Shown here piece after piece: positions 1-30,127 of a DNA stretch of 64,000 nucleotides (within the stretch, counting starts at the first letter, position 1; each line of letters starts with the position of its first letter). The stretch covers positions 11,475,403-11,539,402 of the forward strand of contig CM082587.2 in assembly GCA_040954595.2 (NCBI GenBank), in the 5' to 3' direction. The DNA is from Balanoglossus misakiensis. Its lineage: Eukaryota; Animalia; Hemichordata. The notes beneath the pieces were generated by a model, which did not search any database, was not told the DNA's origin, and saw only the letters and a list, made by a program, of their open reading frames with translations. A program made the translations under genes and the position numbers.

Positions 1-219
1 TAGCAGGCTACTCACTTCTGGCGGGTTGCCGTAGTCCTTGGAAAATCGGCTGAAATACGTAAACAGACCAGTGATTATTTTCCACGGAATGAATTTTGGG
101 ATAACACATTATCCGAGTTCAGGCTGTGTTAGGGCGTTTTATTGAATTACGCTGAGTTTGTTAGCTGTTGCCGTTCAAATGTTTCTATCTAGACCTGGCT
201 ACACTGGTGAGGTATTTAA

Positions 220-328
220 GGGTGTCGAAAAGACAAGAGTGAGGGGCCAAAGTGCGGGACACGCACAGTGCAATAAATGGCACTCTGCGGGAATTCACGC
301 ACAATGCAATATATTCGACTCTGCGGGA
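220..328 (+). repeat. left terminal inverted repeat (109 bp)
   Basis: GGGTGTCGAAAAGACAAGAGTG...ACTCTGCGGGA, identical to the reverse complement of 16624-16732. Contains two GCGGGA-n-CGCACANTGCAATA modules. Confidence 0.95.
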
Positions 329-431
329 CTCTTGGCGCCCTCAACGATATGAAATGAAACGTTTAAATAGCGTTACGTCATGCATATAGTTTGGCAGTAC
401 TTCGTTATTATAGATTACATTTCAATAGAGA

Positions 432-3400
432 ATGGATCGCAAACAACGTCGTCGATTTTTTGAATCCCATCCATCGAATGTGCGAAGAAAGAAGCGGCCA
501 CACCAGGAGATCGTTAAAAGCGTAAAGCGCCAACGTTTTGAGTAAGTATATATTAGAGTTGCACTGTTTGTAACACATAGCGTGCAGTATCATGTGATCG
601 TGAAGGAGACAAAGGCCGGTATTAATTTGCCCTTTTCAGGTACGAAAGTCGCTCATTAAATGTCGGACAACAGGCGTTGATAGGTGTCATTAATTTAATT
701 CTTTTAATAGTTTGATTGATTTATCCCGGCGGGGTGATCGTGTCCTCCCTTCCCTCTCAGGGCAAAACTGTATTAACCGCCATCTTGAAAACCGCATTGC
801 ATTGTGGGACGACTGGGGGGAAGTACCTGAAGACCTGTGTTTTCAGCAACTACTATTTTATTTCAAACCAAAAAAATCCTGCCAATGAATACTCTGTAAG
901 GGTAATCAGTCATAGCAGGGGAATTGATCTCTGGCACTCGATCACCAAGACTGGAGACCATAGACTGGAGTTAGGCCTTCTAACTAGGGTTTTAGTTTTA
1001 TTTTTAACAAAGAAAAGCACAAAAAAATGTGATATCAGGATTTAATAGAAGTTGTACACAAACATTTATGTGTTATAAAAATTGAGTCCCAAATTTCAAA
1101 TCAATCAGAGAAAAAAATGATTTAAGACCAAAAACGGCCAAAATTGCCCCAAGAACACAAATATGGAAATTTCACTGATTTTTACAACAGCTTACTTTGG
1201 TTATGTATCCCTACTTTAAATTTGGCATGTTATCAGCAAACACCTGATAGGAAGCCAGGTTTATGGGGGACTTATCTGCCGTGTGTGTACATTACTTGAG
1301 ATAAAAATGGGGGGGGGGGGGGGGAGGTTAGCTGCTGGTAATGTAATGGTTTGTATATCATTTTAGTCAAATATCAATTTCTCTAGCACTGCCTCTCTAA
1401 AATTGCCATCACACATGACACTTTATTGGCCTATTGTTAATTTCTTTTTACATTTCTGTGTTTAAATATGGTTAGGTCAGATCTGCTTTTTTAATTAGTA
1501 TCATATGTGTTGAGTACAATGAAAATTTATTTAGTTATTGATATGCTCTTTCAAAACAATAGATACTTTTTTAGAGGAATCAGTGAACATAAATGTTTAT
1601 ATGTGACCAAGTTTTGTTTGTTTCTCTTCAGAATATCTTCAGTAGTTGGTACAATTGGCAATAACGCAAGGGAAGAATACCTGCATCAGTTACAAGCCCA
1701 GAACAGAAAGTGGGAGCTATCATCTGGCAATACATATGTATTGTCAGATTGTGAAATTGAGACTGGGCAGTTGATATCACAGCACGTTATTGTCAAACGT
1801 AACCTGCGATTTTACAGTGTGCAGAGTACGTCTCAGGAGTTCCTGTATACATGTTCATGTCAGGATGGGTTAATCCAAGCAGCCAGATTATCCTCATCTC
1901 AGCGTGGGATACCAGAAAACTTTGATGAGTTCATCACAACTGAAAAAAATAAATACTGTCTTCATGCCTGGGCAGCAAGTGAACTTTTTCCTGATGTACC
2001 TGTTGAAGTGGACCCCAACTCTGCAGACACATCAGTCATTGTTGATTGCCTGTCATTGAATCCGTTCCTGACTAGTGTTACCATAGGTGAAGACACACAT
2101 ATAATATCTCTGAGGAACAAACATGTTGGTAAAAAACTTACCTGTGAGACCTGCGCATATGGTAGAACCACATGTGACCATGTTGAAGAATACCGAATAT
2201 GGTGTGGACAAAATGAGGTTGAGATTCAAGAAACTGAACGCACTTTGAAAGAAAGTACTTTCCCAAGCGTGTCATTTAAGCCAATCTCATACCCTCTTGA
2301 TGACTCTCTGAAGGTCAAGTTTCAACAACAACAAAGTGGAGAACAGCCTGTACAGCATAATCTAATTCCCGAGATACCAAGTGCTGGCCCCCATTCTACC
2401 TGTCAACATGGACATGCATGGGATGTTGATGACCCTGTACAACAACATTGGCTTGTTGGAGATGCCATTGTGTATTATGAGACACATTCACTTCAGCATG
2501 TTTATGTAGAAGGAGAGGAACAAACTATCAAGGGTAAGTTAACCTTATTTACTGTACCATTGGTTTAAGGTTGCATTGGATCACTGCCATTTTTCCATTA
2601 AAATGTTTGATTGATACAAGACACCGTGAATATTATTCTACATATGGCTATATAGTGAATCACCGTTCGACCACACGCAACTTCCATCCCACTTATCTAA
2701 TGATCTCCTACATGTATTGGTAATTATATTAACATAGTCATTATTTTCCTTGCAGTGTACTATCGTCCAAGTGTTGGTCCATGTATGTGCAGGTTGCATT
2801 ATGATGGGCATGGAGATTTGATGTTTAATCTGAACAACAAGGACATTATTCACTACAGTTTATTACTCTCCTACCTTCATTTGATGGTAGAGTCCAGAAA
2901 TCCGTTGGCATCTTTCCATAGGTAAGTACATATACTTTGTATTTCTAAAAATATAATCATTGACTAGGGAACTTATGTATTTGGTAGCTCAGCAAGGAAA
3001 GATCAATACTGAAATTACCCATTAATACTTGAACGAAGGGGTGGTAAGCAAAATTTTTGTCTAAATATTCTCTAGGGAAGGCTGTTACCCATATAGTCAG
3101 TCATCAAATTTCAAAAGTTCATTGTTGCTTTTACCAGTCCGATAATTGTTTAGACCTGTCACATGCTCAAGAGCGCCATTTTTCCCATGATATAATTTAC
3201 AGGGTGATTAGGAAGCCCACCAAAAACACATTTCTTGATGTACCAGGTTGTATTCTTTTCACCCCCACCCCCCATTAATTTGGGGGCTCTTATCAGAGAA
3301 GGTACAGTATAAAAATGTTACAACAGATAAACATTATAAACTTTCTTTCACTCCTGGCAATCACCTGACATTAATCTTTCTTTCTGTTCTTAAATAGGGC

Positions 3401-5789
3401 CTACTCTGAAAAACATGCTATGTTATCAGAGTCTGTTTCTTTGAAATACCACAAACTTAGGAATGCCTGGAATGCATTTGCAAGGCTATTGGACATAAAT
3501 TATGGCACTGTATACCAATGCCCTATATGTGAGCTGCAGCCTTCTGTTCTGATATGTGATGGTACGAGTGTAGGACTGAACAAACGCCTCTTGCAAGAAC
3601 TTCCAGACCCAGAGAGGGCATCACGTGACCAAGGCCAGCCTTTGGATATTGGTACACGTCACTGTGACCGAGTGTATATACCAAATGCCAAGGTCAGGAA
3701 ACTGTTATTACAGTTTTGTAGTACCAACAAGCCAGCTGAGAAACCACTTACACCCCTTGAGTACACAGTGATGATTAATTTGATGAGAAAGTACAGTCAC
3801 CTCCATTCGCTTATGGAATTTCTCCAACTCGTCAGTGGACACGGAAGAAATCTGCTAGCCCCAAAGGAGTTCTGCCAATTTCTTCAAGATTTGTCAAAAA
3901 ACTCGCCTGCAAGTGCTCTTCTGCAATTGACCCCAGATTCACAGGCTAAACATGTCATCAAGAAAATAATACACGGACTCGATATATTTGACAGCAGACA
4001 TCAAGGGGAACTTGAAATTGTACAGCAAGATGCTCCTCTTATTTTCAAATTGCTGTCACATTTCGGGCACAATCCTCATGGTATCCCAAGAGAAGTGCGT
4101 CGCCTTCTTAGAGATGTGTTGTTACGAGTGAGGAGCTCATACAAAGTATGTAACCAGGGACCTGATAGTACTGTGCAATATCCAGATCCAATAGAAGACC
4201 CTGTAGCTTGCTTCCCTTGCCTACCAAAGCTTCATGGGTAAGGATATCTCACTGTAACTTGAAAGTTAATTGAAGTCTGTCTTAAGCCTCTAGAGCTGCC
4301 ACTTTTTGCATTATTTTCATTACTTTTGTGAATTTTCATTTCCCACTTAGACATACCTTTCTGTATACATGTTTATATGTATTCAAAATGGAAGTTTATG
4401 TACCCATGTGCTATGCATGCCATTGCCATTCTCTTAGTTATCATGCTTTCACTTTTCATTTAATAGGAAACCTCTGTACCGGCAAGACAAAGACAGACTT
4501 GCACATGGTGATGACACTTGCCAAAAGATCTCCAACAAACACCCTACGTTATCACCTGGCATTTTCACTGTGTTCTGTCAACATGGGTTCTGCTATGGCT
4601 TCCAGGCTATGAGGCAAGTGGAGTCACCCGAAGTGCCATTCAACATTATGACAACAAGACTAAGACAACCTCCAGCCATTGTCATATATGACAATGCATG
4701 TCGGCTGCATCAGTACTGTTTAAATCGGTAAGTCTTATTTCAACCTTGATATACTGTTTTGTATGTTAATGTGATTACCACACTTCTGTTAAACTTAAGA
4801 GAAGGGTGGCTAAGCTTTATTTTATGCTCAATTATGCTTGCCCACCCTTGCCTTTAACTCAATTTTTTTTGCGATATGATCCAAGATGGTGGTCTGGCAG
4901 CCACTTTGTTACAATTTTTTCATATTGAGATGTCAGCTTGTCATATGGTTAATTTTGTGTTTTACCCCCCCCCCAAAAAAAAAAAAAAAAAATCAAGAAT
5001 TTGATGAATTGACGTTGCTTACTCCTTTCAGCAAGAATATAAAGATTAGAACTAATGAAGTGATTTTTTGTCTTTCTTCAGAGAACCAAACTATTTCATG
5101 AAGACAGTTTTCTTAGTGGATCGTCTCCATTGGAAAAACCACATTGGGTGAGTATCAGATTAAAAAGCTCAAAAGAATATTTTTCAAATCATCTATGTTT
5201 GGCAATTGCAGAGCTTAGTTGACTGGAACAGCTAAGAAGTATACGACCAGTTAACCACATCATATTTGGAGTCAGTTAGGAGGTAGGAGACAGGGAAAGG
5301 ATTTTGCTCTGATAAAATCAAATTTCACAATGGCAATCACCGATTGGTCAATTCTATTATTCCACTCAGAGACATAACCCGGACTGGTGACATAAACAGG
5401 TTTGCTCAAATTACAACTTCTGACTGGCTCATAAGCTCTGTTAATCAGGTATCTGAAATGTATTCAGGGCATGTGTGTCAATTTTCTAAGGAACGATATC
5501 AATTTGTCTGAAAAAAATTGTTTATGTTTTATACTGTTAAAATTTTCACAGAAGAATCTTCTTTTATATTTTACTGATCAGTTGTTCATCAGGTTATAGC
5601 CTGCAACAGTACAAGGACAACAGAAGTTTGGCCAACATAAATACCCAGATCTGTGAGCAGAGCAATGCAGCATTACAGAAAATTAAGGCACAAGTATCTT
5701 ATATGACCCCAGATAATTTCATCTTCCATGTCAGACTGTTCCTTGCAATCTGGAATCAAAAGAAGAAAAGTCACCTGAACTACTTGTAG
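432..5789 (+). CDS. KDZ (Kyakuja-Dileera-Zisupton / HMGXB3-C-terminus-like) DDE transposase, 7 exons, ~850 aa
   Basis: Exons 432-541, 1632-2533, 2756-2921, 3398-4237, 4467-4727, 5082-5147, 5582-5789. All introns are GT-AG and phase-compatible; total 2553 nt with no internal stop. Basic N-terminus (MDRKQRRRF..RRKKRP). SWIM-like CxC..CxH (YTCSC..YCLH; CETC..CDH). Core motifs CPIC..LICDGTS, TLSPGIFTVFCQHGFCYGF, ESP, IYDNACRLHQYCLNREP, VDRLHWKNHIGC and NTQICEQSN give a complete D-D-E triad. Confidence 0.88.
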
Positions 5790-7749
5790 TTCAAGGTTTT
5801 AAAATAGATAAGTTTGTTTTTCCGATTTTTCTATTTAATTGAACAGAAAGCAATGACTGATATAAAGTATAAGGTCTTTTGTTTGTTCTGAAAACCGCAC
5901 TTTAACTGTCTAGCTCGGACATTTTTTCAAATGAGTTATAGCTGAAACCATCTGGATTTATATTGATTTAGGACCATTCTTGCTTTCATTGTGGTCAACT
6001 TACATTACACAGAATACTATTAATTAATTCTCTGACTGTTTCAGTTGATTGTGTGACTGCAGCATTAGACACTTCAAGAAAACAAAAACTATATTTTTCC
6101 AGATTTATGAACGGTAGACCATCATCACAGTCACTCCCCATGACTGCCGTCATATAAAGTCTGTCTGTTATTTTGTTTCAGTTTTTGAGAAGTACTGACA
6201 AACTGTCCATAATGAAGAGGGCAAATCCATGGATGATGTGTTACACGAGGTAACAAGATGACCCATATTCCCAAAGACATGAGATGCTTGGAATCATGCG
6301 ATTTTATAACTGTGCTGATGAAAACGGTAAAAGATAACTTTAACATGATGCTTTATCATCTGTATCAGTAAAATTCTTGCTGCATGGTTTTACATTGCTG
6401 CTGTGCTGACAAAACAAAACAAGATGCATAAGAGAAAGTGGTGTTTTACAGTTTATTGTATTTGTTACTGACGTGTCGAATTTCCATTTTGTTATCAGAA
6501 TGAGAATGTAGACCAGCCATATACATCTATGGGGAGATGGAATGTATAGGAGGTGTGTTCGCAGGGTACTAAAGAAGAAATTCAGTCATCAGAGGACAAC
6601 TATGGAGGTGTTTTCATGGAAGTTTTTTAGCGTCTCAGAGACGTATGCTCTGCATACACATACCAAACGGCCCTTCTCAGGGCCACCACATCCTTAAAAA
6701 AGAGAACTACCGTACACCGATAAACTTGTTAATAAAGAAGAAATGCACAAATCATTACACAGGCACACATGTATATAAAATTGAATAAAGAAGTACACCA
6801 CACACCCGAGGTGGACTTTAGTGTTATTTTAATATACCGTTCATATTTGTCAAAAACAATCACTACTCAAAGATAACTGTCAAAAACAGCGTCAAGGACA
6901 CTGGTCCCATTTAGGGATTAATCAAGAAAAAGTCTACACTGAAGTACATAGACAGACAGACACACACACACATAGAGAGAGATCAATGGGCAAACACTGA
7001 CCCATAAGCTGCTAATGGCACGTGTACTGTACATACACCAAATAGAACAGCCAAATTCCGAAATACCTACGATTTGATTCCATTACAATTTTAAAGAACC
7101 CCATCCCATTAACTCACAACTTAAATTCTAAAGTACATTTGTAATCAGCCCAACACTTTGAGAAATATAGTTTTTTCAAATCAAAATTGGAAAGTATGCA
7201 CCATAAATACAAGATATTGCCCCCACAAAATATTGACACTTTCATCATAGATTTTGTAAATCATTATGAGAACACACCTGGTAACCTGCAAATCAAATTT
7301 AAAAGCAATGGGGGTAGAGGGTTCTGAGAGTTTGGACCAAAAATGGCAAAAATCACCCCAAAATATACTATTGAATTCTTACCATGATTCAAAAAAAAAA
7401 AAAAATGAAAAACCTCTACACACCCTCAAATGATTTTTGTTATGAATTTGAAAAGTTTTTTTGTAAAAGAAGATTTTGGGAAAAAGATAAAAAATTCACC
7501 AAAATTAGTCATTTTATGATATCACCACAAAAAAATCTATATGATGTCTCAATAAAGTACACACCACTTTGCAAAGCAATCTGACCAATAATTAAGTTAC
7601 CGAGTTTTGACCAAATTCCCATTTTCCCAGCTAAAAAGACAAAATCCCGCAGAATACAACAGATTGATAACTGCGTTTTGAAATGTACATTAATTAACAC
7701 AGAAAGACAAGAATGGGAAAAAGAGTTAAAAGACAATGAAAATATCAAC

Positions 7750-10700
7750 TCATAAGTTGAGTTTTTGACAAATTAAGCCCAAAACTTGTTCTGCATGATC
7801 GATTTGCAGGTTCTTGAACTGTTTTATGTGCTGGTGCATGAACTGGAGAACCACATTCACACTAACTTCTGATGCTTCAAATGCAGTTAATAATCTGTTG
7901 TACTCAGTGGGATTTTGTCTTTTTAGGGCCACTAGATGGAATGGGTTTGTCCGACGCTTTTTTTTTGGAATTGGGCAACTGAGCACCAGGTCAAGAAGGT
8001 CCCCTGATTTCTTCATTTGGTGGAGTTTCTTCAGGGTTGCCAGCTCTTGTTGCAGTTCTTCATCATCTTGAACTTTTCTGGTCTTCCTTCCTGACCGTTG
8101 ACTGCGGCGTGGCGGTAGTGATGCTGGTTGTTGGGTTTGTGCTGCTGGTGGTGATTCTGGCTGTTGGATTTGTGCTGCTGGTGGTGATTCTGGCTGTTGG
8201 ATTTGTGCTGCTGGTGGTGATTCTGGCTGTTGGATTTGTGCTGCTGGTGGTGATTCTGGCTGTTGGATTTGTGCTGCTGGTGGTGATTCTGGCTGTTGGA
8301 TTTGTGCTGCTGGTGGTGATTCTGGCTGTTGGATTTGTGCTGCTGGCTGTTGCTGTGGTAGTGTGTAAGACACTGGTGATAATTCTGCACTTGTGTTGAT
8401 GGAACTGTTGGCTGATGGAGTTGCTGGCTGGGGTGATGGGTGAATGGGATGTGAACCTGAAAAGAAAATGAAATATAGAAGTGTATTGGTTGACATTATT
8501 CAATAGTTTTACTTAAGTCATCAGAACACAGGTAAAACATAAAAATTAAAAACCTATTGACTACATAATGGCTTTTACCCCTTTTTACAGACACATAGCA
8601 AAATTTGGTATTTTTTAACACTGAGGTATCCCTCTCTCAATACAAGAAGTACATGAAACAACCACTGAACAAAGGTTAAACTATAATAATTGTCCTAGTC
8701 ACATTTAAATGACTATGTGTATTCAAATACAAAATCATTAACACCATTATTATTAAATAATTATTATATTATACCGTATATTGATGGTGTAAATCACGCT
8801 ATTTGATTGGTCGAGACACGACACGTGACCGTGATATATTAGCCATATACCACAGTCATATATCATAGTCAAAGAAAATGCCTTTTTAAAATGTTATATG
8901 CAAAGTTTCAATATACTGGCATAATATAATAGCAATAAAACACCCCAGCCATGGTATACCACTCGATTTTGACCAGTTCAACTCCATATACGCACTCGCT
9001 ATCGCTCGTGCGTATATGTCGTGAACTGGTCAAAAATCTCGTGGTATACCATGGCTGGGGGTGTTTTATTGCTTAAGTAATTGCAAAATTCATAATGACA
9101 ATGATAGCAATCAAACTGACCAGAGTGGAACAAACTGCTTGTAACAGGAGAGATAAATACTGAATGGACAGATAAAGAGTGATTGTTTTGATTAAAGGAT
9201 TGTAAGCAAGAAATTCAGTCTGTATCTCTCCAGTTACAACCCGTTTTCCCCTGTTGGTTGGCTTGTTGTTTAAGTATATTTAAGTATATTTAAGTTTGCT
9301 AAGACATATTAAATCACGATCACTCCACCACATGGTCGAGGTTAAACATAGAACTTGGAGAGGTTTCACTGTGATAAAGAAAGTAATACATTGTAATAGG
9401 GATATTTCTTACCAAGATCCTCAAAATTTATTGTACTCAGATCTTGTGTGAGGTAGTGAGGATCTGATTCATGCTGTATGAATGATAGCACTGCTCCAAC
9501 TTCTGTGTTTGTGCCTTTATAGAGAAAAGATGAAAATGACCTTTGTAAATATTGTAGAACTAAATTGGGTAAATGTACACATACACATGACTGAAAATGC
9601 CAAACGTTAAAAACACAAAATCCACACTGACGGCTCAAGAGGTCAGTACACCACGTATCGTCTAGTATTGAAAGTTGTTGTTTAAGTACAGTCTACTTTA
9701 ACGTTTTAGACGATACTAGACTCTAGTATCGATAGTATCGATACTATCGGATATTTTTGAGGTCCGACATAGTCGGGAAGCAGGCAAAGTTGTTGTTAAA
9801 GTGCAGTCTACTTTAACGTTTTAGACGATACTAGACTCTAGTATCGATAGTATCGATACTATCGGATATTTTTGAGGTCCGACATAGTCGGGAAGCAGGC
9901 AAAGTTGTTGTTAAAGTACAGTCTAGTTTAATGTTTTAGACGATACTAGACGATAAATATCCGATATCGTATAAATGTGCAATGTCGCGCTGTCCTCTAT
10001 TTTTGCGCTGTTACTTTTCTCGGAGCACACTCAATATAAAATTGTCACGTATCGTATGGTGCATTCAAATGTATTAGATCCTGAAAATTGCCAGCGGAAT
10101 CATATAAACCTACAAAATGATGTCAGTTGGCTTATACACAGTTCCTCCACAAACATAACTAACATATCGGGAAAATCATAGATAGTAGGGCGACTGCCGC
10201 TTGCTTCCAAGGGGAAAAAACGCAACTCTAAGGTGGTCACGTGACCATAATGCGCATCCTACAGCTAATCCCCTCATTCGCACGTCCGAACAATGGGCGA
10301 TTCCCGACCGTCTTTCTTGAGGGACTGTGGCTTATAAATTTGACATAGGTGAATTCGACACGACAAACCCAAGTCCAAACTCCCGACAGTGTCTCACATG
10401 ACACGTACGATGCATCGCAAACAGCAAAAAAAAAAAAAAACAAAAAAAAACAAGAAAAGCGCAACAAGTGATGATATCGAGGAATTTACTTCGAATTTGA
10501 ATCTGCACGAATAATTTTACTGTATGATGCGAATAGAACAAAAATGTATGTACTGGACCCTGGTGTATGATTTTTACATTTTCTTTTTTACAGTCAAGGC
10601 TAAAAACATTTACCTTGTAGACTATGACTCTTCACGATCTACATTATAGTTGCAATAAAAGACACGCTTACCTATAATAGAATGCCCAGCAATATCGTTT

Positions 10701-11707
10701 TCAGGTTGTGGATATTGGGTTGCACCCTCACCAGTCGGACAATCAGTTGGCCTACTGACTTCATTATTGCCTGAGAAAAATTGGGCAATATCGCTTTCAA
10801 GTTGTGGGTCTCGGGTAACCGCTGCACCCTCACCAGTCGGACAATCAGTAGGCCTACTGTCTTCATCATCGCCTGTGAAAAAGTGAGAACAAGTTTAGTA
10901 AGCCAAAATATTCTCACTGTTTTGCAGAGAAGTACTTACCAAGAGACCAGCTGAACAAAATTAAAAACCACTTTTAACAAAAAAACGTCATTTTCGGTAC
11001 TGTGGTTAATTAAACTTTGTCAGTCGATGTTCGTTTTCAAGGCCTTCATCTCAAAAGAATGTATAGCTCGTGTAAAACGGATGATTTTGTTTATTGCTGA
11101 ATCTATACATTCTCAGGAGTAATGTCTAGCAAACTTTCACCATTCTAATTAAATAACCGTTTAAATGGTACGTACCTGTCAACTCGACCTGTCCATAATA
11201 CTGGTAACATGACTTAGCAACGTCTTTCATGCGCGTGACCCACGAAGACGTTGAAGCAACCACTTTACCGGGCCGACTGGGGTTGCAGTACGGTGTTTCG
11301 GCTGGCCACCATACTGGCTTCATGTCTGGTCTGTCCCACAAAGGTTGGGCACGATTTGTGGTGCATTTTACCAATGCTGGTAAAAGTTCTCTTACATCAT
11401 AGTAAGTGAACGAAGAGAGCTTCTTCTTATGGTGGTTTCTTAGATCTGGCAGTACGCTTTCTGGGGGTTGTTGATCATTATCATCACTAGGATGCGCTGG
11501 TACAGTCAGAAATGTTGAAACGTTTGCTTCAAGGGTTCTGGCAAGTGGCTGGGTGCCATGGATGACAAAAATCCGTTTCTTGGTGACGGGATCGAAAAAC
11601 GTTGCAACAACTGCAGCTTCAATCTGTGTTTTCGTGTGAAATTTGTCAAAGTGTGCAGTCAGTGACTGCCACTGTTGCCTTTGGTACTTCTTTGGGAACT
11701 GCATCAT
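7750..11707 (-). CDS. NRF1/EWG/P3A2-family DNA-binding-domain protein (divergent), 4 exons, ~513 aa, low-complexity Q/P-rich C-terminal half
   Basis: Minus-strand exons 11707-11176, 10872-10672, 9514-9413, 8456-7750, joined by phase-1 GT-AG introns; 1542 nt open. Exon 1 reads KKYQRQQW..EAAVVATF..FVIHGTQPL..LPDL..VRELLPALVKCTTNRAQPLWDRPDMKPVWWPAETPY..SWVTRMKDVAKSCYQYYG. This is collinear with the NRF1 DBD as recalled (KPGWGKESCKPIWWPEDIPW..SWTQALRTIVKNCY). The start codon is tentative. Confidence 0.8.
8124..8351 (-). repeat. coding 33-bp minisatellite (AAQIQQPESPP) x ~6.5
   Basis: Near-perfect unit ctggctgttggatttgtgctgctggtggtgatt in the last exon of the NRF1-like gene. It explains the overlapping repetitive ORFs 8031/8037/8063. 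Confidence 0.95.
8770..9075. mobile_element. small non-autonomous element ending in a ~143-bp hairpin (Crypton-like), in intron 3 of the NRF1-like gene
   Basis: 8931-9073 is a long imperfect palindrome (agcaataaaacaccccagccatggtataccac...gtggtataccatggctggggtgttttattgct) with a cgctatcg apex. Upstream lies gattggtcgag..cacgtgac. The family assignment is by recalled resemblance only. Confidence 0.45.
9671..9952. repeat. 115-bp tandem repeat x ~2.4 rich in short palindromes
   Basis: aaagttgttg restarts at 9671, 9786 and 9901. The unit contains cgatactagactctagtatcg and cgatagtatcgatactatcg. Intronic. Confidence 0.9.
10689..10875 (-). repeat. ~96-bp tandem duplication inside exon 2 of the NRF1-like gene
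   Basis: Two copies encoding SRPTDCPTGEGA..PQ.E.DIA. The inner copy is preceded by an acceptor-like ttttctcag. Confidence 0.85.
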
Positions 11708-11875
11708 GACATAGAGAAGATCGGACAGCCCGGACAAGTGAAAAATAAAAGTCTTTTGTCCGACGGGCAAGTGACCTTTACCCTGTACTAAACGTGCGAG
11801 AACAGGTGTGTTTAACACTAATTGTATGCAAATTGCCGCGTAGAATGGTGTTTTATACCAAAACGCGCTCCCCAC

Positions 11876-12105
11876 TAAAATATCTCACAGAAAAGTTCTA
11901 GGTCGACGCTTCGTGTCTGTTGATGAGCTACAGACGGTCCTCAACGAAATCGAGGCTACCCTAAACGATCGTCCCTCACCCATCTTTCGTCAGATTCCGA
12001 GGATCTTCCACCTTTGACCCCTTATTACATCGCCGTCCTATCACCACATTACCATACTACACCGTTGATGATAGCGAGCTAAATGACCCAACTTTCGGCA
12101 ATAAG
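11876..12105 (+). pseudogene. degraded BEL/Pao integrase fragment
   Basis: Reads RKVLGRRFVSVDELQTVLNEIEATLNDRP / SSDSEDLPPLTP / LHRRPITTLPYYTVDDSELNDPTF with frameshifts. Same integrase region as the ORF at 37021-37938 (FDELATVVTEIEAVLNDRPL..LTP..LHGRTLTSLPY). Confidence 0.8.
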
Positions 12106-13927
12106 AACGCGAACTGGCAAGACTAACATACCAGACCTATTATAAAACTATATCATTTGAGTGCTGCACTGAACGAACGTACGATATTTCGGTACATTGG
12201 CCTATAATTATGAATATGTGTGAGTTGTTGTAACCACGAACTTAATCAATTTCTGATAACTTTAAGTCTCGCCCGACATCACGGCCTTGAATGGCGTTAC
12301 GGTGTACAAGTCTGTGTGCTGGTCACCGGGTGACGACCTTATCGGTAGGAAGTTGTTCGAGAAAAAACTGCAAAATGAATATCATATATGGAGTAGGCCT
12401 ACAACTTGGGAAAGCAAAAGGTTGTCAACTAAGATGTCAGTCAACAAGGTTTTAAAATTTGTTTCTGTTGAGCGCTATAACAGAGTTCACAAATGTAGGC
12501 AATAATGATCTCCACAAGTTCTTCAGTCAACACGCTACTCTCATGGAATAAAACCACAGAAAAATACTAGTAGTCAAATTGTCTGTGATAAAACGAACAA
12601 GGCAATAACTGAAAACAGGTGTAAATGTTGTTCGTTTTTCTCACTCCGATTATCGAGCTATTAGTGCTTTTAACCATTCTACTCGGGAGGAAATACCACC
12701 GTGAGATATAACTTCCACAGTATTTGTCCACAGTGATTATTTATGTTTTAACTCGGTCGAATGTGACGATGAAGTCTTAGTTGAACTTAAATTTCTGTGC
12801 CAGTAGGTATACTTTTAGCATAAGTATTGCATCCGATGGGTCATCATTCTAAATGAGACTGCTTATAAAATGAAACGGTCTTATAAGTTTATTTTCCCTT
12901 CTACCGACTCATCCTACATGTCAACCCGATCATAGAGAAATATTAGTTGAGTGGCGCAGATTGCCTTGCGCAAAATGAGCGTACCGATGAACCCCGCCCA
13001 GACCGATTCACATAGAGCATCTTAGCATCACGTAGACATGAAGGAAAACCCTTATCAGTAAAACAAAATGAACCCAAAGAATACAACACATAATAAAAAT
13101 CTCACAAAAAGGGTCAAATAATCGCGGTTTTATCACGTGAGCCCAAAAACATTTCAAGATTAGGCACAAATGCAAACGTATACACGAAGAAAACGGCATT
13201 TCAAACGAGATTAAAAGCAGAAGCGAACGTAATACAGTACGAAGTATGTACATGTGTAGGCATCGGGGGCACCCCAAATAAGATAATAAATAAACGACAA
13301 ACACTATTGGATATGTTAGGTTTTTATTGGTACAACCTTGAAAAAAATAATTGTCGCAATATGATTGACAGGATCACAGTCACTCCAGGATGAACGACAA
13401 AATGATGCAACACCATTAACATTTTTATCAGCAAACATTTTATTTTAGTCCCGGTGTTGTGCCGAATTCGGCACCATGCCGAATACGTCCCCGCGCATGC
13501 CTTGACAAACAAACCATGGCTTCTAAGGGATAAGATCGGCAGGTAAACCTGCCGATTTCAGCCCCGTTGCCGATTAAGACCCCAACTAAAGTCATGTTAA
13601 CTATTGAAAGCTAAAAGTGATGGTTTCGGCCTAAATGGGTGAATATCTGCCCATGGCCCTGATTTGTTGGTGGAATGAAATTAAATCCTTGCGGTAATGC
13701 AATGTCCAAGTTTACAGTGCAGTACAATGTACATTCATGCACAGCCTTACATGCACGTTGGATGGCAAAACTTTCACACAAGAAAATGCAATATTTCAGA
13801 CACATGTTACTGATGACCCGAGCTTTTACTCTTACATAAGTTTGCGTGCATGAACCATGTTTTGGTTTGCAGTGGAAATTCTAGTCGAAACTACTGCCAA
13901 CTTAGGGGAGGCATCGGCCGCGCGGTA

Positions 13928-14058
13928 AGGGCCTGGTCAGAATTAACAAGGGGGGAGGGCCGGTGCGATTGGGGGGAGGGTCACCATTTCTCATGCAACG
14001 GTTTGGGGGAGGGCCGCTACGTTTTGGGCACTTGTCAAGGGGAGGGTCATTAATTTTT
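13928..14058. repeat. G-rich end of a probable non-autonomous repeat (4 x GGGGAGGG)
   Basis: Four spaced ggggaggg motifs after aagggcctggtcagaatt; no partner end found. Confidence 0.35.
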
Positions 14059-14231
14059 GTGCAAGGATGACACCGATAATGTCAAAAATTTGAAGTGTTA
14101 CAGAGAAATCCTGAAAAGAGACTTGCGCTCATATAGGCACTCCTGTATGGATGTATTGACATCCCTTGTACTACAAAATACATCACACAACTCACAAAAC
14201 ATACACATGTACCAGTATGTGATCTTAAACC

Positions 14232-14261
14232 CCCTAACCCTAACCCTAACCCTAATTAGGG
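14232..14261. repeat. short telomere-type tract (CCCTAA)4 followed by TTAGGG
   Basis: Read directly: ccctaaccctaaccctaaccctaattaggg. Confidence 0.85.
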
Positions 14262-16364
14262 TCCAACGGGCATTAGGGGACCTGAGATTTCGGGCTCTAA
14301 CCCTACTGCCTTGCCAATGTTTTTTTTACCCCTCCTTTTGATACAATGTAGGTAAACATGTAAACAACAACAACAAAAAATATCAACAAAAACAAGTCAA
14401 CCCTTCCATGTTTTTTAAGGTCGAGTCCCCCAATGCCCAACTTATGTCTTGTTTGGCCAAAAAAAGAGGGTTAGAAAAAATTGTTTGGATTTATTTTGTT
14501 ATCTTTTAGGTTGTTGTTATTGATTTTGGTCCCCTGTCTAACCCCAGCCTTTAAAAAAAAACATTTTTAGAAAGGCCAAAAAAATGCCTTGGTGGGTATA
14601 TGCAAGTTGCTCCAGACGGCAAGTCCAAATTGTGCATGGACGGATTTCTTGGTAGGTACTTTTAAATTTTACATAAACCATAACAAACTATATATTTTCA
14701 GAAAGGTCTCGGCGAGTTTTATAACATACTAAAATTTGACCAACTTTGAACTTGACCTTGAAAAGTTATTGCGGAAAAACCTATTGAAAAAAACATACTT
14801 TTTAGGGTACGCGGTGTCACCCCCTTAATATAGTTGGAAACCACTGAAAATTACAGGATAGATTGATAATAAGTTGTTTTAATGTGGTGTGGTGAAAAAA
14901 TTTTGAAATTCGAAGGTCAAGGTCAACTTCGCCATTGCTTATAGTTGTTGGTTTACCTATGTCGGATTTCATTATCCTTTGACCTTTGACCTCGAAATTT
15001 GGTACACAAGTAGAGTGTCTATCTATAAACTCTTGACAAAAGTTACATTTAAATATTTTAACATAAAAGCACTTTTTTGACCAAAAAGCAAACTTCTGTA
15101 AATTAGCTGTAAATTAGCTTTTTTTTAATATACACTTTGCTTTTTTAAGATTATTTTTTTATTTTAAGCATTTCAAAGATGAAACTTTCCAGAAACCATC
15201 ATGAGATGTTCTAGAATATAAAAAAGTTTACACTTTTGAGATTGGACGCCATTAAGTATTCCAAATGTTGTTGCAAAATAGACTGAAATAATGCCCATAG
15301 ACTTAACATGTATAAAAACAAAAGAATAATTTTTTTGGACACTTGGAAATTTTTTTTTAATGTATTTGTTTTGTCTTTTATATATGATATAGAGTAGTAA
15401 TTGCTCTATTCAAAACACTATTTGGTTTAAAGATCTGATTTCATTTAGTCTTTTATTTTAATTTATTCTATTGTAATTATGCATGTTCAAGTATAGGGAA
15501 AATATTCAGTTTTGAGGTTAAGTTTGCATTACTTTTAACACACTTAAAATCGACGGTCCCAGACCTCGGACCACAGGTGCTCGTGGACTTGTGCTGTCAC
15601 AGGGGAGATATTCAGAATACTAGCAACAAATGCCAAACTAGCAACACCGGCTTTCTTTGAGGGGGCAACCGGCTTTCTTTGAGGGGGCCTACACGTTATC
15701 TCTAAAATTGAACGTATATGTACAAGAGAGGTTTAATAGCGATGCCAAGAAGAAGAAAAATACCAAGACAAGAGCATGACAACAGAAGTTTCAATAGTTT
15801 ATTTGGCACATAAAAGGCGAAAATTGCGTGCACACTGTACAGACATCGCATATAAAATAACAACACATTTTGATGAGTTTTACCGTGTGTTTTCGGAACG
15901 CGAATGCATATAGCAAGGAGAAGACACGGAACGTGCACACGTACATACGCATGGCCTTTGTTTCTAGCTCGTGTTCATGAAGCTGCAGCCTGTCATATGG
16001 GTGATGGCACATACATGCTCTGCAGACATCACGTTTTTTGCAGTGCATTCATCCTGTGAACATGTCATAGTCCTGCCCGGAAAATCGTTTGCGTGGATTT
16101 TGATTTGCAAACGCGTCGCACGTCAACAGTGCGATCTTGTATCAATGAATGACCTTGACGTCATAACACGGGTTTTCCGGAACAAGCATAGACGGGATAA
16201 CTCACTTCCCGCTCGAATTAGAACGCAAAGATGTGCATATGGCGTGAGTGCAGCGACAGTCTCCAGCGAAATTGTTGCGCGATGGGATGTGATCCGACAC
16301 GCAGGGAACGGACCTTGCTCTGTTGGTCATTGGGTTTACCACTTACGAATGCAACATCAGGACA

Positions 16365-16578
16365 GTAGAAAATGTCGATTGTGGGTGGTTGATCGCCCGA
16401 TCATTTATTATTTTCAACGCCCGAATGTCGTCGGACATCGTCAAAAACACGATCGACCTCCTCGAAATGCAACATGAAAGTAGAAAATGTCGATCGTGGG
16501 TGGTTGATCGCCCGATCATTCGCCCGAATGTCGTCGGACGTTGTCAAAAACACGATCGAACTCCTCGAAATTCAAATG
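16365..16578. repeat. ~115-bp tandem duplication subterminal to the right TIR
   Basis: agtagaaaatgtcgat.gtgggtggttgatcgcccgatcatt...cgcccgaatgtcgtcggac..tcaaaaacacgatcga.ctcctcgaaat occurs twice. Confidence 0.9.
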
Positions 16579-16623
16579 TAATCAAAGCCAAGGGTCCTCC
16601 CACATCTTGTGCAGTGTGCGTAT

Positions 16624-16732
16624 TCCCGCAGAGTCGAATATATTGCATTGTGCGTGAATTCCCGCAGAGTGCCATTTATTGCACTGTGCGTGTCCCGCAC
16701 TTTGGCCCCTCACTCTTGTCTTTTCGACACCC
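16624..16732 (-). repeat. right terminal inverted repeat (109 bp)
   Basis: Exact reverse complement of 220-328. One extra CGCACACTGCAC module lies just inside it (~16609-16620). Confidence 0.95.
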
Positions 16733-17118
16733 TTAAATACCTGCACTGGTTAACATTCAATGTATTGCGGCAGCAGACCAATGATTTTCTTGCACGAAGG
16801 GAGTATGGTACCAGCAATAATCAGAGATCAGGCTTCTTTGCCGTTCAACAGTTCCTACTTCAGTCGTGACGTTGCAACTGAACGTTCAGTATGGGGGTTG
16901 GCCCGCAGGTGGCCGTGGGGGTTATCAGATCGCCCGTAATGGCACGCAGCTTCATGCAGCTGTATGGGACCAAAATAATACGCCCGATTCGGGGGTCACC
17001 TGTGACACCTGCGTAACTCAATTATGTGCATGCGTAATTGTGGGGTCAATGAAAGGGATGCTAGTGTGGTATTTGTTGCAAATGGATCAATATGAAGTCC
17101 GATTTTCCTGTCAAGTTA

Positions 17119-17628
17119 GGCTGCATTCACAAACACCTCAGGAGGGGGGGGGGGGCAGGAGAATTGAGGCGGGGATTTGAAATAATTTTGGGACTGAAAG
17201 GGCGGGGACTTGAAAACTTTGACGACTAAATATTTATTTTGAGTCCACAAAAATGCAGTTTCGCGCCCTTTATTTTACAAAATTTTCTAATTAAATGCAG
17301 CTTTGAGCTCTGTATTTTATAAAATTGTCTTACGTGCACCCCCTCCCAAACCCACCCCCTTCAATTCTCGGTTTACAATGTCTCCCAACACAGGATACAA
17401 ATACTTAAAAAATGGGAGCGCTGTTTTTCTTTTTTTACAAGATAGATACTAGGTGATGTGTTTTGCTCTGTGAAAGAAAATGGGGAGGGGGGATTTCAAA
17501 ATTTTGGCAGTTCGGAAGGGGGGGATTTGAAATTTTTCTGGTTGTGTACGGGGGGCATGTGAAAATTAGCGGTAAAACAAATTGAATTCTCCCCCCCCCC
17601 CCCTCAATAGGTGTTTGTGAATGCAGCC
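17119..17628. mobile_element. PIF/Harbinger-type MITE (510 bp), TTA TSD
   Basis: TIR GGCTGCATTCACAAACACCT...AGGTGTTTGTGAATGCAGCC with internal poly-G/poly-C. TTA at 17116-17118 and 17629-17631. Confidence 0.88.
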
Positions 17629-17813
17629 TTATGGGCGATCTTATGTGACATTTCACCTACTTTTGCTTAGTGAGCATCCACAGCAGATGCATGCAGCTTT
17701 GGCGTGGGGGGGGGGGGGGCATATACGGATGGGACCATAAAGATATACCAAAGGCGGGGTCACCTGTTGCACCTGCCTAAGTCATTGATTTTGTACATTT
17801 AATTGGACACTAA

Positions 17814-18621
17814 GGCTGCATTCACAAACACCTCTGGAGGGGGGGGGCAGGAGAATTCAATTTTTTTTACCGTTAATTTTCACATGCCCCCCTCAACAAC
17901 CCGAAATATTTTCAAATCCCCCCCTTCCGAACTGCTAAAATTTTCAAATCCCCCCCCCCCAATTTTCTTTCACACAGCAAAACACATCACCTATCTATCT
18001 TGTAAAAAAGAAAAACAGCGCTCTCATGAAAAGAATTTGAAACTGATGTTTCCCCTTATCAGTGGGTATTAAAACTGAACATAATTGTTTCTATTTTTTT
18101 TAACTTAGTATTCTGTGTTGGGAGACATTGTAAATCGAGAAGTGAAGGGGGTGGGTTTGGGAGGGGGTGTCCCCCTCCCACGTACGAAAATTTTATAAAA
18201 TACAGAGTTCACAACTGCATTTTAATGAACCCGGCAAAAGCAAATTAACTCAACTACCGGTATGTTGGGGAGGACAAATTTAACCGTCGCTGCTCAAAGT
18301 TATCATGGGGTGGGGGCAAGTCCCCTGACCTGGGACACTAGATAAAACAGTCAATGATTTAAAGGTGCTGATGAATGACGGGGGTGGGTGTGGGAGGGGG
18401 TGTTCCCCTCCCACATTAGAAAATGTTGTATTATGAAGGGTTCAAAACTGCATTTTTGTGGACTCAAAATAAATATTTAGTCCTCAAAGTTTTCAAGCCC
18501 CCCCCCTTTACAGTCCCAAAATTATTTCAAATCCCCCCCTTACATACCCTAAATTTTTTCAAATCCCCCCCCTCAATTCTCCTGCCCCCCCCCCCCTCCA
18601 GAGGTGTTTGTGAATGCAGCC
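17814..18621. mobile_element. PIF/Harbinger-type MITE (808 bp), TAA TSD; same family as 17119-17628 in opposite orientation
   Basis: Same TIRs. TAA at 17811-17813 and 18622-18624. The interior is reverse-complementary to the first copy with ~300 bp extra. Confidence 0.88.
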
Positions 18622-26413: not shown

Positions 26414-29400
26414 TCAGTTTGTTATATACCTCATAAGTGATGACCATTTTTTAAGATGAAAGTACATTTTATGATTTGCAGTTGCAATCTTAAGTTCAAT
26501 TTCATGTATGTTTTTGAGCTGAACAATAAACCCAGTGATATTCGGAATTCGATTATTTAATTTACAGTAGTAAATGTACATTCTAACTTGCATTGCTATA
26601 AAATTGACTATAAAAGTCTCGTTTGGGTCACCCAAAACCATACATAACACTGATGGTGGTTTTTTCAATTTAAGAGGGATACCCAACGTAAACAGTAGGT
26701 CCCTCCAGAGAGCAGTAGTACAATTGCAACTATGAAATAAATGGTCGATGGACTCTGTTTCCACTTTACATAAATCACAAAGAGCAGTTGGAAATTTCTG
26801 TGGATTGTACCTGTTTAGCTGTTTGTTTGTATACAAAATATTGTGAAGTAATTTAAATTGAAAAGCTCTAGCCTTACAATGTATTGATAACTTGTAAGTG
26901 AAGTCATACATTTTTTCCCAGTTTAGATTAAATATATTCAACATTTTTTCCAGTGTTGCTTGACTTTTTGGAGTCTCTATAATACGGTCGTTCAAATTAC
27001 ATTTCAAACTCTTTTTCGTTAAAGTGTCTAAATTACAGATTGTGCCATTCAATGAAATACAAAGCTTATGTACACTATGTGCTTTGGTACAATTTTTTAA
27101 CTTGTTTGGAACAGAAAGTGTCAATCCTAACCACTTCAATTTCTGATTTAAATTCAGGCCTTTCTGCTCAAATACAGACCATGATACTCTATTAAAACCT
27201 GTAAACATGTCAGGGATGAAATTAAAGCCAGCGTCAGAAAAAGCCTTATAAAATACCGACTTTCCTCCAACGAGGACGTTTCTGTTGTTCCAAATCACCT
27301 GGTCTGTAGTATTTGGAATTATGTTGATTTCTGACCATGTGACAAGACAATTATTTATAAAACTGGAAACTTGGACAGGCAAAAGATTGGTGCGGAAGTT
27401 ACATTTAAAAAGTAATTTTCCACCGACTTTCTCTAAACTGTGTAAGACAATGTGTTTCCAAGGGTGTTTACATTCCTCATTCAACAGGCGTTTAATCAGT
27501 AATACTTGCTTTGTTTTTATCATCACATCTAAATTGGGCATTTTTAAGCCTCCTTGGCCCACCTCCCCTATCATTACATTCCTGCGAACCCGGTCTTGTC
27601 CATTCCAGAGAAAATTATAAATTAACTTATGAACCCGACCTATTACTTCATTAGGAAAAATTACGTGTGTAAGCACATATGTTAATTTGGAAATTGCCAA
27701 TGACTTAATAACTTGAACTTTCCCAATGATGGTCAAATTCCTAGTTTTCCACATATTGAGGACCTTTTTTAGATTTTCGACTGGGGTAACAATATTTTTT
27801 TCCTGGGCAATTTTTTCATTATAAGAAAAATGAATCCCCACAATCTTGATAGTAGGGGTGGGCCACTTTACCCCGAACGCCTCATCTTTTCGAAGTCTCC
27901 ATTTCCCAAGCCAAACAGCTTCTGTCTTATCTTTGTTGACTTTCAAACCAGAAGCATTATAAAAGGAAGTTAACATTTCAAAAACAATTCTTACAGAGTT
28001 TTCATTTGATAAAAAACAGGTCATATCGTCGGCGAACGCCGACTCCTTAATTTCAACACTGCCAATATTGATACCACTAATTTGCCGGTTATTTCTTATT
28101 GAATGCAAGAGTGTTTCTAAAACCAGAATAAATAACATAGGTGACAAAGGGTCGCCTTGGCGCACTCCCTTCTCAAGCTTAAAATAGCCAGTCCCAAACC
28201 CATTGTTCATTACAGTGCTTTCAATGTTAAAATATAAGGCTTTAACCCAGTTGATGAAGGACACTCCAAAATTAAAGGATGACAATGTATTGTAGAGATA
28301 ATCCCAACTTACAGTGTCAAAAGCTTTTTCGAAATCTATGGCTAATAAAATTGCTGGAATATCAGCATTACAGGTGTGATGAAAAATCTCATCTATCAAA
28401 CGGATATAATCACCAATGTTTCTCCCCCGGACAAAGGCCGCTTGGGAGTCACCAATTAAGCAGGGCAAAACTTTCTCAATACGTTTAACAAGGCATTTTG
28501 AAGCAAGCTTCATGTCAACATTCATAAGGGAGATTGGTCTCCAATTTTTCAGATAGAGTTGATCCTTCCCAGGTTTATCAATCAGAGTTATGACACTCTG
28601 TTTCTGTGAATTTGAAAATTCCCCCGTTCTGTAACCATAATTGAGAGAATTCAAAACTAAATTCCCCACCTGTGGCCAAAACGCCACGTAAAATTCTTTT
28701 GTAAGGCCATCATTGCCGGGGCTTTTGTTGTCTGGAAGGGAGAGAAGAACAGAGAAAACTTCCCCAGGGGTCAAAGGACCCTCACACAAAACTTTATCAT
28801 TCTCTGACAACATTGGTAAATTTGCATCCAGGAAATAATGCACATCGTTGGAGTTTGTGGCGCACCTTGAGTAAAGCTTGGCATAAAACTGCTTAATTTC
28901 ACACAAAATATTCTTTGGGTTGTCTATAATTGTATACTCATCTTTCTTCAAATTGCTGATACTCGAGTTGCGTTTATTTACCTTTTCCAAACCTAAAAAG
29001 AACTTGTTACATTTTTCACCTTTCTCGTACCAATTAATCCTGGATCTTACGACCGCTCCTTCTGTAATATAATCATAAACTTTCTCCAAATCACTCTTTG
29101 CTGACTCGAGCATCTCGTAATTTTGCACTGTAGGATGATTAGAACAAAGACCCTCAAGAAAATTCACCGACAGTTCAAGATTCTGTAAATTCTGTCTACG
29201 TTTTTTCGCCACTGTTTTGCTGTAGTCAATCACAAAACCTCTAATCTTAAATTTTATGAAGTCCCAACGAACCCCATCATTTAACCTAGTGGATTCACTA
29301 ATCCACTCGTCAATATTATCGTGCAGAATGGTTTTGAAAGTACTGTCGTAAATTAAACTAGAATTAAACTTCCAGTAGCCAGGACCCCGCTCGTTTTGGC

Positions 29401-30127
29401 AAGATTTATACACCAAAGAGACAGCTGAATGGTCGGAATCCACTCCAGGAATAATCTGAACGCTACTGATTTGTTGCTGTAAATCGCTAGAAATGAAAAA
29501 ATAATCAAGTCTACTCTGAGTGATATAAGGCCTGCGCCTTCTCCAGGTAAAACCTCTCTTTTCTTCATGACGCACCCTCCATATATCAATCAAATTGAAG
29601 ACGTCAGATATCCTATCTAAAAGAGCAATGGACTTTCCCCATGGTTTAGGATTGCCTCCTGAGCGATCAAGGGCAATATTATAGGTGAAATTTAAATCCC
29701 CTCCTAAAATGACAATTGTGTTGGGATCGGTTACATATTTGACCAGCAAAAAATACATTTCTTCTAGAAAAATTACATGCTCTTTCTCTATATTGGGTGC
29801 ATATACATTAAGTAGTATACAAGGCGTATTGTCTAAATTTACATCAATAAGAATAAATCTACCCATATCGTCAGTTACAGAATTGTTAACTATAATATTT
29901 GGGTTATTGATAATTGTTATTACACCTCTACTATTGTTTGTTCCATGCGAAAACCAACAGCGACCATTAAATTGAGTTGACCAAAAGTGAACATCGTCTT
30001 TTACACTGTGGGTTTCTTGTAAGAAAGTAAATGTGGGGTTCTTACTATTTAACCAACATCCAAGTTTTTTCCTTTTTTTGAAACTACGGAGCCCTCTTGT
30101 ATTAAACGTCAAAACTGAAAAATCCAT
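26414..30127 (-). CDS. Tx1/L1 ORF2: APE endonuclease + reverse transcriptase + C-terminal CCHC
   Basis: 1237 aa with LTFNTRGL, LQETH, GGDLN, SRLDYFF, SDHSAV, GYWKFNSSL, KSPGNDG, NWRPISL, DFEKAFD, GVRQGDPLSP, FADD and CDLC..HLFHSC. Confidence 0.96.
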   Translation of the reverse strand: MDFSVLTFNTRGLRSFKKRKKLGCWLNSKNPTFTFLQETHSVKDDVHFWSTQFNGRCWFSHGTNNSRGVITIINNPNIIVNNSVTDDMGRFILIDVNLDNTPCILLNVYAPNIEKEHVIFLEEMYFLLVKYVTDPNTIVILGGDLNFTYNIALDRSGGNPKPWGKSIALLDRISDVFNLIDIWRVRHEEKRGFTWRRRRPYITQSRLDYFFISSDLQQQISSVQIIPGVDSDHSAVSLVYKSCQNERGPGYWKFNSSLIYDSTFKTILHDNIDEWISESTRLNDGVRWDFIKFKIRGFVIDYSKTVAKKRRQNLQNLELSVNFLEGLCSNHPTVQNYEMLESAKSDLEKVYDYITEGAVVRSRINWYEKGEKCNKFFLGLEKVNKRNSSISNLKKDEYTIIDNPKNILCEIKQFYAKLYSRCATNSNDVHYFLDANLPMLSENDKVLCEGPLTPGEVFSVLLSLPDNKSPGNDGLTKEFYVAFWPQVGNLVLNSLNYGYRTGEFSNSQKQSVITLIDKPGKDQLYLKNWRPISLMNVDMKLASKCLVKRIEKVLPCLIGDSQAAFVRGRNIGDYIRLIDEIFHHTCNADIPAILLAIDFEKAFDTVSWDYLYNTLSSFNFGVSFINWVKALYFNIESTVMNNGFGTGYFKLEKGVRQGDPLSPMLFILVLETLLHSIRNNRQISGINIGSVEIKESAFADDMTCFLSNENSVRIVFEMLTSFYNASGLKVNKDKTEAVWLGKWRLRKDEAFGVKWPTPTIKIVGIHFSYNEKIAQEKNIVTPVENLKKVLNMWKTRNLTIIGKVQVIKSLAISKLTYVLTHVIFPNEVIGRVHKLIYNFLWNGQDRVRRNVMIGEVGQGGLKMPNLDVMIKTKQVLLIKRLLNEECKHPWKHIVLHSLEKVGGKLLFKCNFRTNLLPVQVSSFINNCLVTWSEINIIPNTTDQVIWNNRNVLVGGKSVFYKAFSDAGFNFIPDMFTGFNRVSWSVFEQKGLNLNQKLKWLGLTLSVPNKLKNCTKAHSVHKLCISLNGTICNLDTLTKKSLKCNLNDRIIETPKSQATLEKMLNIFNLNWEKMYDFTYKLSIHCKARAFQFKLLHNILYTNKQLNRYNPQKFPTALCDLCKVETESIDHLFHSCNCTTALWRDLLFTLGIPLKLKKPPSVLCMVLGDPNETFIVNFIAMQVRMYIYYCKLNNRIPNITGFIVQLKNIHEIELKIATANHKMYFHLKKWSSLMRYITN

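Follow-up and report, generated by a model that had tools for sequence, protein, structure and literature searches.

The window analysed here is a 64,000-nucleotide stretch of the acorn worm Balanoglossus misakiensis (contig CM082587.2 of GenBank assembly GCA_040954595.2, positions 11,475,403 to 11,539,402 of the forward strand). Its left part is occupied by a DNA transposon of the KDZ type holding two convergent genes, one predicted to encode a transposase (gene 1) and the other a relative of the NRF1/EWG/P3A2 proteins (gene 2). The coordinates of the element and of its component features are listed in Table 1.

Table 1. The KDZ element and associated features (positions in the window).
Feature	Position	Strand	Description
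Whole element	209..16743	.	16,535 bp; ends 5'-GAGG ... CCTG-3', terminal base pair mismatched
Left terminal inverted repeat (TIR)	210..328	+	119 bp; 36-bp subrepeat at 260-328, rich in TGCG/CGCA
Right TIR	16624..16742	-	Identical to left TIR; subrepeat array reaches inward to about 16610
Left target-site duplication (TSD) copy	202..208	+	CACTGGT, 7 bp; empty-site contigs run from 208 into sequence at 16751
Right TSD copy	16744..16750	+	CACTGGT, 7 bp
Gene 1, predicted transposase	432..5789	+	7 exons (432-541, 1632-2533, 2756-2921, 3398-4237, 4467-4727, 5082-5147, 5582-5789), 850 residues; N-terminal pair of Cys/His clusters with a SWIM-like pattern, CxC4 and KDZ core
Gene 2, predicted NRF1-like protein	7750..11707	-	4 exons (11707-11176, 10872-10672, 9514-9413, 8456-7750), 513 residues; exon 1 (11176-11707) encodes the dimerisation and DNA-binding domains
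Deletion-derivative part	16292..16743	+	Other contigs connect it to base 295 of the left end
Integrase scrap, BEL/Pao-type (presumed), degraded	11828..12096	+	tblastn match with open reading frame (ORF) 37021-37971, E 4e-12
Hairpin repeat, gene 2 intron 3	8931..9073	.	Very high-copy elsewhere in the genome

The two TIR arms are 100% complementary over their whole length, the left one ending 103 bp upstream of the transposase ATG, and the 64-kb window contains no further TIR copy. A copy of CACTGGT lies outside each end, with one G between each copy and the TIR. Five contigs of a run designated X2 represent an empty site, following the left flank to 208 and then continuing into sequence that closely matches position 16751 onward, and two more junction contigs with different flanks also fit a start at 209 or 208. 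Read most simply, these data define an element from 209 to 16743 whose terminal base is mismatched and whose TSD is 7 bp long, a call that rests on one filled site and on empty sites belonging to other copies of a host repeat. This repeat (150-208 and 16751 onward) surrounds the element and is high-copy, with a depth in the thousands. An 8-bp TSD was rejected: it needs a mismatch or mutation together with asymmetric ends, and it conflicts with the empty-site contigs. A previous sequence-only reading of this DNA had recognized the identity of the TIRs but had made them 109 bp long (220-16732), omitting the outer 10 bp. Its description of a young family agrees with the identical TIRs, the exact TSD and the empty site, and we consider it nearly certain that the element is real and young.

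Splicing of both genes was predicted from sequence and homology only. In gene 1, all six introns have GT-AG borders and the 850-residue frame has no internal stop. Residues 18-847 of the predicted transposase align with Branchiostoma proteins of 879 and 881 residues at 36-37% identity, and the protein is 45% identical to a Glandiceps protein and 64% identical to one from Ptychodera. The Branchiostoma and Glandiceps homologues have both CxC4 and KDZ matches. Exon 5 alone, a fragment query, matches the KDZ profile PF18758 with an E value of 3.9e-4 and 20.6 bits, under the cut-off of 26.6, and the homologue P0003 (45% identical) matches it with 34.3 bits. CxC4 was likewise found in the exon-3 fragment (E 0.0023) and in the full-length homologues P0007, P0009 and P0165 (26.9-34.4 bits), and the best Atlas clusters for P0007 are KDZ/CxC4 (0.96-0.97). 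Among the aligned sequences covering each position, D447 is kept in 7 of 7, D748 in 11 of 11 and E807 in 10 of 10; H776 is also conserved, and these four are presumably the catalytic residues. The Cys/His clusters lie at residues 111-148 and 208-220, and exon 2 has no Pfam match at E ≤ 1. No SAP or ULP/SUMO protease domain was matched in exons 2, 3, 4, 5 and 7, the exons scanned (exons 1 and 6 have 37 and 22 codons), and no separate DNA-binding domain was found in the transposase. Gene 1 is thus, as judged from its sequence, a CxC4-KDZ transposase gene with a nearly end-to-end match to lancelet proteins. None of 42 pattern matches in viral contigs was a relative of this transposase; one of 17 in metagenomes was, on a 2.9-kb contig that ends inside the transposase, has no NRF1-like match and is uninformative on pairing.

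The stop codon of gene 2 lies 1.96 kb from that of gene 1, and its three introns are all GT-AG. Exon 1 matches relatives by tblastn and short motifs of exons 3 and 4 recur in relatives (judged by eye); exon 2 has no homology support of these kinds. Exon 1 matches PF10491 with an E value of 2.6e-14 and 53.9 bits (cut-off 23.5), over positions 32-208 of the 213 in the profile, and residues 6-176 match the NRF1 chain of structure 8K4L (E 4.9e-14). The predicted structure of this domain has a predicted local distance difference test (pLDDT) score of 89, obtained with a folding alignment that included canonical NRF1 sequences, and the NRF1-DNA structures 8K4L and 8K3D were the only Foldseek matches at E ≤ 0.001 (3 of 462). 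The domain is followed by a low-complexity linker, a 33-bp coding tandem repeat (8118-8346), a basic motif common to relatives and a C-terminal tail of about 100 residues that the relatives lack. A 48-bp inverted repeat (88%) has its arms at 7631-7678 and 7879-7926, the second within this tail, and may be an exonised small element. The sequence-only reading had proposed two intact spliced genes arranged tail to tail, a KDZ-type Asp-Asp-Glu (DDE) transposase and an NRF1/EWG-like DNA-binding domain. All three proposals hold, given convergent frames of 850 and 513 residues with GT-AG introns throughout, a transposase with KDZ and CxC4 matches, a conserved acidic triad and full-length homology, and a PF10491 match with the NRF1 fold in the predicted model.

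NRF1/EWG is normally viewed as a single conserved host regulator. Gene 2 resembles host NRF1/EWG/P3A2 (8K4L, 8K3D) in its dimerisation and DNA-binding domains and predicted fold, but it is only about 25% identical, begins right at the domain and, unlike host NRF1, is multi-copy and located inside a transposon. The base-reading residues of NRF1 are given as R206, N242 and R244 in the available text of PMC10810270. The equivalents of R206 and N242 are kept in gene 2 (R106 and N142), as they are in 8 of 9 and 9 of 9, respectively, of the divergent NRF1-like sequences checked, whereas the R244 position is occupied by serine (S144), in an NPxR/K motif where host NRF1 has NVR.

A full HMMER scan with gene 2 gave 150 matches; three of the best four are from Ptychodera and Glandiceps, with 39-48% identity. 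These best matches begin at the domain, as gene 2 does, and most end in the basic motif also present in exon 4. A word-based search for exon 1 among longer proteins found none in 818 candidates, and an alignment search found five among 7992 scored. In a FastTree phylogeny (81 selected of 152 sequences, 93 columns, midpoint root, with fragments and redundant canonical sequences left out), gene 2 pairs with Ptychodera P0011 (0.95) inside a clade (0.83) that is apart from canonical NRF1 and whose named members are all hemichordate. The Ptychodera paralogue P0017 falls outside this clade, and the deep branches lack resolution. Because of this grouping, gene 2 is taken on phylogenetic grounds to be a divergent NRF1 relative and not the host NRF1 orthologue. 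In Glandiceps, a gene 2 relative occurs at six loci on six contigs with 99.4-100% identity, LOC144452195, LOC144437617, LOC144436769 and LOC144440348 among them, a pattern that shows signs of a recently mobile gene, with segmental duplication as an alternative, and further diverged NRF1-like paralogues occur in both Glandiceps and Ptychodera. Ptychodera NRF1-like proteins include XP_070542580 and XP_070537888. Divergent NRF1-like domains are also present in the long proteins P0113, P0153, P0117, P0127 and P0098, which are from bivalves or annelids (P0153 aside); two of them are fused to CXXC fingers.

The two genes seem to be amplified together. In run X1, gene 1, the spacer and the stretch up to the end of gene 2 have a contig depth of 199-217, exon 1 of gene 2 one of about 233, and the region upstream of gene 2 (rightward) one of 237-242; depth is 202 at the left end and 444 in the common inner TIR, and two unique TIR-end contigs have depths of 23 and 26. 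In X2, gene 1 has a depth of 1100-1199 and exon 1 of gene 2 one of 1237, with lower values (442-718) over some non-coding contigs. Both genes are thus found at a similar depth, about 4-10 times that of unique contigs, which suggests roughly 4-10 near-identical copies carrying both genes and makes their co-amplification likely. Long contigs show 0-1 mismatched letters relative to the window. At 514, 753 and 2141 the window copy departs from the collapsed X1/X2 contigs, with two conservative residue changes. Of the element, runs X3 and X4 cover scattered repeats and nothing else. It is highly probable that gene 2 is present in most full copies of the element. A diverged NRF1-like variant was also detected, at a depth of 46-58 in X1 and 156-180 in X2. 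Other contigs have a joint at 16292/16657 and a loose end at 295, with depths of 283 and 1283; as they join base 295 to 16292, they imply a non-autonomous deletion derivative of about 0.54 kb elsewhere in the genome.

The reading that we favour is that the NRF1-like protein is an end-binding accessory factor of this KDZ element, to which we assign a probability of about 0.45. The sequence-only reading had likewise proposed a second component, by analogy with Harbinger Myb/SANT or CACTA TnpA. An acorn-worm KDZ lineage would have captured a copy of host NRF1/EWG, which kept its domains, lost its N-terminal region and diverged. The gene 2 protein would dimerise like NRF1 and recognise half-sites of the TGCG type within the 36-bp subrepeats of the TIRs; a shift in specificity is proposed because the R244 position is serine, a change that allows for altered recognition. 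With both ends occupied, the protein might assist in loading the transposase or in pairing it, and from the left end, at a distance of 100 bp, it might also adjust the activity of the transposase promoter. The transposase would then cut and paste by DDE chemistry with a 7-bp stagger, and short derivatives would be mobilised in trans. The pattern TGCG-N(5-8)-CGCA occurs six times in the window, five of them at the element ends and none in the 16.3-kb interior; none of 5000 TIR shuffles reached two occurrences, a figure that is overstated, since the pattern was picked after inspection and its copies have a single origin in one tandem unit. A complex of gene 2 exon 1 with exons 2 and 4 of the transposase, predicted without alignments, scored 0.00 and was uninformative. 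A broader proposal is doubtful: that KDZ transposons with 7-bp TSDs and long TIRs form a hemichordate-wide lineage in which the captured, re-specified NRF1 DNA-binding protein has been an obligatory subunit for end recognition since before the split of Ptychodera, Glandiceps and this species, and that the divergent NRF1-like genes scattered through acorn-worm genomes (and perhaps those of bivalves and annelids) belong to transposons. If true, it would amount to a two-component system built on the NRF1 fold.

Several observations weigh against an end-binding role or against a stable pairing of the two genes. Besides the post hoc choice of the motif, the TIR contains no host NRF1 site (neither TGCGC nor GCGCA), and the host consensus was rejected as a candidate there. 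NRF1 reads adjacent GCGCA/TGCGC halves, according to the available text of PMC10810270, and the order of half-sites at its site is opposite to that of the pattern counted in the TIR, so that binding to the TIR would require a changed specificity. The contigs of X1 and X2 come from one sample, possibly the source of the window itself, and contig depth is not copy number. In the diverged NRF1-like variant, 8 of 10 listed codon changes are non-synonymous (12 selected sites), which is compatible with a decaying copy, although the sample is small and selected. Outside this species, one Ptychodera transposase (on a 0.38 Mb contig) and one from Glandiceps (on a 35.9 Mb contig) were compared with 13 listed NRF1-like loci, five in Ptychodera and eight in Glandiceps, and neither shares a contig with them; the Glandiceps transposase cluster has one member and the NRF1-like cluster six loci. 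This comparison is a weak test because the transposase search was shallow (10 matches of 22 candidates). Lancelets have the same transposase architecture, but none of the 20 named NRF1-like clusters is from a lancelet (about 130 matches are unnamed).

These points lend some weight to the possibility that gene 2 is merely carried along: it would come from an NRF1-like family of hemichordates that spreads by duplication or through another element, and would have been picked up recently by this KDZ family, which copies it as a passenger without using it. The listed KDZ and NRF1-like accessions share no contig, the element also holds junk (the Pao scrap and high-copy repeats), X1 depth is slightly higher on the right half than over the transposase, and the diverged NRF1-like variant has no listed transposase counterpart. 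A passenger would nevertheless have to be reconciled with the intact four-exon frame and with a fold and residues conserved despite 48% identity to the nearest relative; moreover, the gene 2 relative has been independently amplified in Glandiceps as near-identical dispersed copies, and for both genes the nearest relatives are found in the same pair of hemichordate genera. This explanation is rather unlikely. Gene 2 could instead be selected cargo, acting not at the ends but as a transcription factor, or one that counters silencing, through which the element stays expressed, like the TET/JBP cargo of fungal KDZ elements, for which the available text of PMC12730594 proposes a role in escape from silencing. 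Such a role, which we consider unlikely, is consistent with the transcription-factor architecture of gene 2, its Q/P-rich linker and basic C-terminal motif, and with the presence of the transposase family in lancelets with no partner detected, but it does not account for the clustering of CG-rich half-sites in the TIR subrepeats. End-binding and expression roles are compatible, because the left TIR abuts the transposase promoter.

A separate nested element as the home of gene 2, a two-gene layout unique to this site and a chimera produced in assembly are all very improbable. The element is nowhere covered in full by a listed contig and the region is repeat-dense, but depth is similar over both genes and out to the two ends, and a nested element with its own TIRs was rejected, as no TIR-like pair longer than 14-15 bp was found among the repeats bracketing gene 2; the TSD copies at the outer ends match. 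The sequence-only reading had left room for a link of the NRF1 domain to transposons by origin as well as by capture. The idea that the domain is an ancient transposon component from which host NRF1/EWG was domesticated could draw on the other divergent NRF1-like lineages in bivalves, an annelid and an insect, and on the mostly molluscan cluster (0.90) and fungal PF11001 (0.79, a lead only) listed by the Atlas. It is disfavoured because the named members of the gene 2 clade are hemichordate only and canonical NRF1 is widespread; in addition, the 93-column tree is unable to place the root, and no KDZ-NRF1 fusion was seen in the 25 long or divergent NRF1-like matches scanned. Capture from the host NRF1 family therefore appears more likely than a transposon origin of NRF1, which has a very low probability in our estimation.

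The remaining contents of the element are repetitive. The integrase scrap lies just upstream of gene 2, and bin depth reaches 55,000-105,000 at 8401-9600. No third gene was found: none of 18 additional ORFs or fragments, lying within the element or next to it, had a Pfam match below an E value of 0.018. Nested, clustered inverted repeats with 155-bp arms at 17100-18000 are typical of high-copy elements resembling miniature inverted-repeat transposable elements. From 18000 to 64000 the window holds a higher-order repeat of about 2 kb with an 81-bp unit, present in both orientations and interrupted by retroelements, and it includes a near-palindrome at 47753-54938. An open 1240-residue endonuclease/reverse-transcriptase frame on the minus strand (26414-30136) is presumably of the L1/Tx1 type, as judged by eye. 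Two open frames at 39717-44669, also on the minus strand, one of 645 residues with PHD-like, esterase-like and zinc-knuckle motifs and one of 1004 residues with endonuclease and reverse transcriptase, were likewise taken by eye to be a CR1/L2-type long interspersed element. Fragments of BEL/Pao-type long terminal repeat retrotransposons lie at 37021-37971 and 48842-53830, the 48.8-53.8 kb pair being an inverted duplication.

An intact and likely recently mobile animal KDZ element with a diverged NRF1 copy provides a concrete case of fold recruitment, one in which a transposon took over a host transcription-factor domain and which is likely unrecorded so far. Carriage of an NRF1-like gene by a transposon would also account for the unannotated 'Ewg-like' genes that hemichordate genomes hold in multiple copies. 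Little work has been done on the chemistry of KDZ transposition, and this near-uniform family is directly testable: its ends and TSD are defined, both frames are open and the 0.54-kb derivative is a natural substrate. No pairing of NRF1 with a transposon or with Zisupton was found in the literature searched, a scope that leaves Repbase, Dfam and most subscription journals aside, so a database entry for this two-gene family may exist. NRF1 is not mentioned in the main texts of PMC12730594, PMC12062965, PMC5753468 and PMC11175523; the second of these, as far as its available text goes, is a screen of domains co-occurring with transposable element domains, and its supplement may bear on novelty. 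The pairing had been thought undescribed by the sequence-only reading, a view that stands for the NRF1 partner in the literature searched but not for extra genes in KDZ elements: multi-gene elements of this kind are already known in fungi, and it is the NRF1-like partner that appears to be new.

Fish-type Zisupton proteins carry SAP and ULP/SUMO protease domains, and in CACTA elements TnpA is a separate DNA-binding protein that is paired with the transposase. The element described here shares with the Zisupton clade a multi-exon transposase with CxC4 and KDZ, and TIRs, and it differs in its 7-bp TSD and in having no SAP or ULP match in the exons scanned. The available texts give SWIM-CxC4-KDZ as the Zisupton architecture, with extra genes of unknown function in KDZ1 and KDZx1 (PMC11343200), and TSDs of 8 bp for Zisupton and Dileera and of 7 bp for Kyakuja, which has CA..TG ends and no TIRs (PMC12730594). 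KDZx1 of Cryptococcus deneoformans likewise has a second ORF, but no TIRs are reported as detected in it in the text available, whereas the element here has TIRs and an NRF1-like second gene (PMC11343200). Kyakuja, in the fungal TET+ families as far as described in the same available text (PMC12730594), is similar in its 7-bp TSD, its 3' TG end and its second gene, but it starts with CA and has no TIRs, in contrast to the GA..TG termini and 119-bp TIRs found here, and it carries TET/JBP cargo rather than an NRF1-like gene. The combination of a 7-bp TSD with long TIRs thus corresponds to neither Zisupton nor Kyakuja as described. On its predicted features, the element is a KDZ element that is Zisupton-like in domains and TIRs and Kyakuja-like in its TSD, failing one defining feature of each. 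The closest parallel in layout is Harbinger/Nuwa, described in the available text of PMC12730594 as a two-protein system of a transposase and a Myb/SANT protein. Like it and the CACTA TnpA system, the element combines a transposase with a separate DNA-binding protein and repeated end motifs, but both the transposase and the DNA-binding fold are unrelated, and the accessory role is here a proposal.

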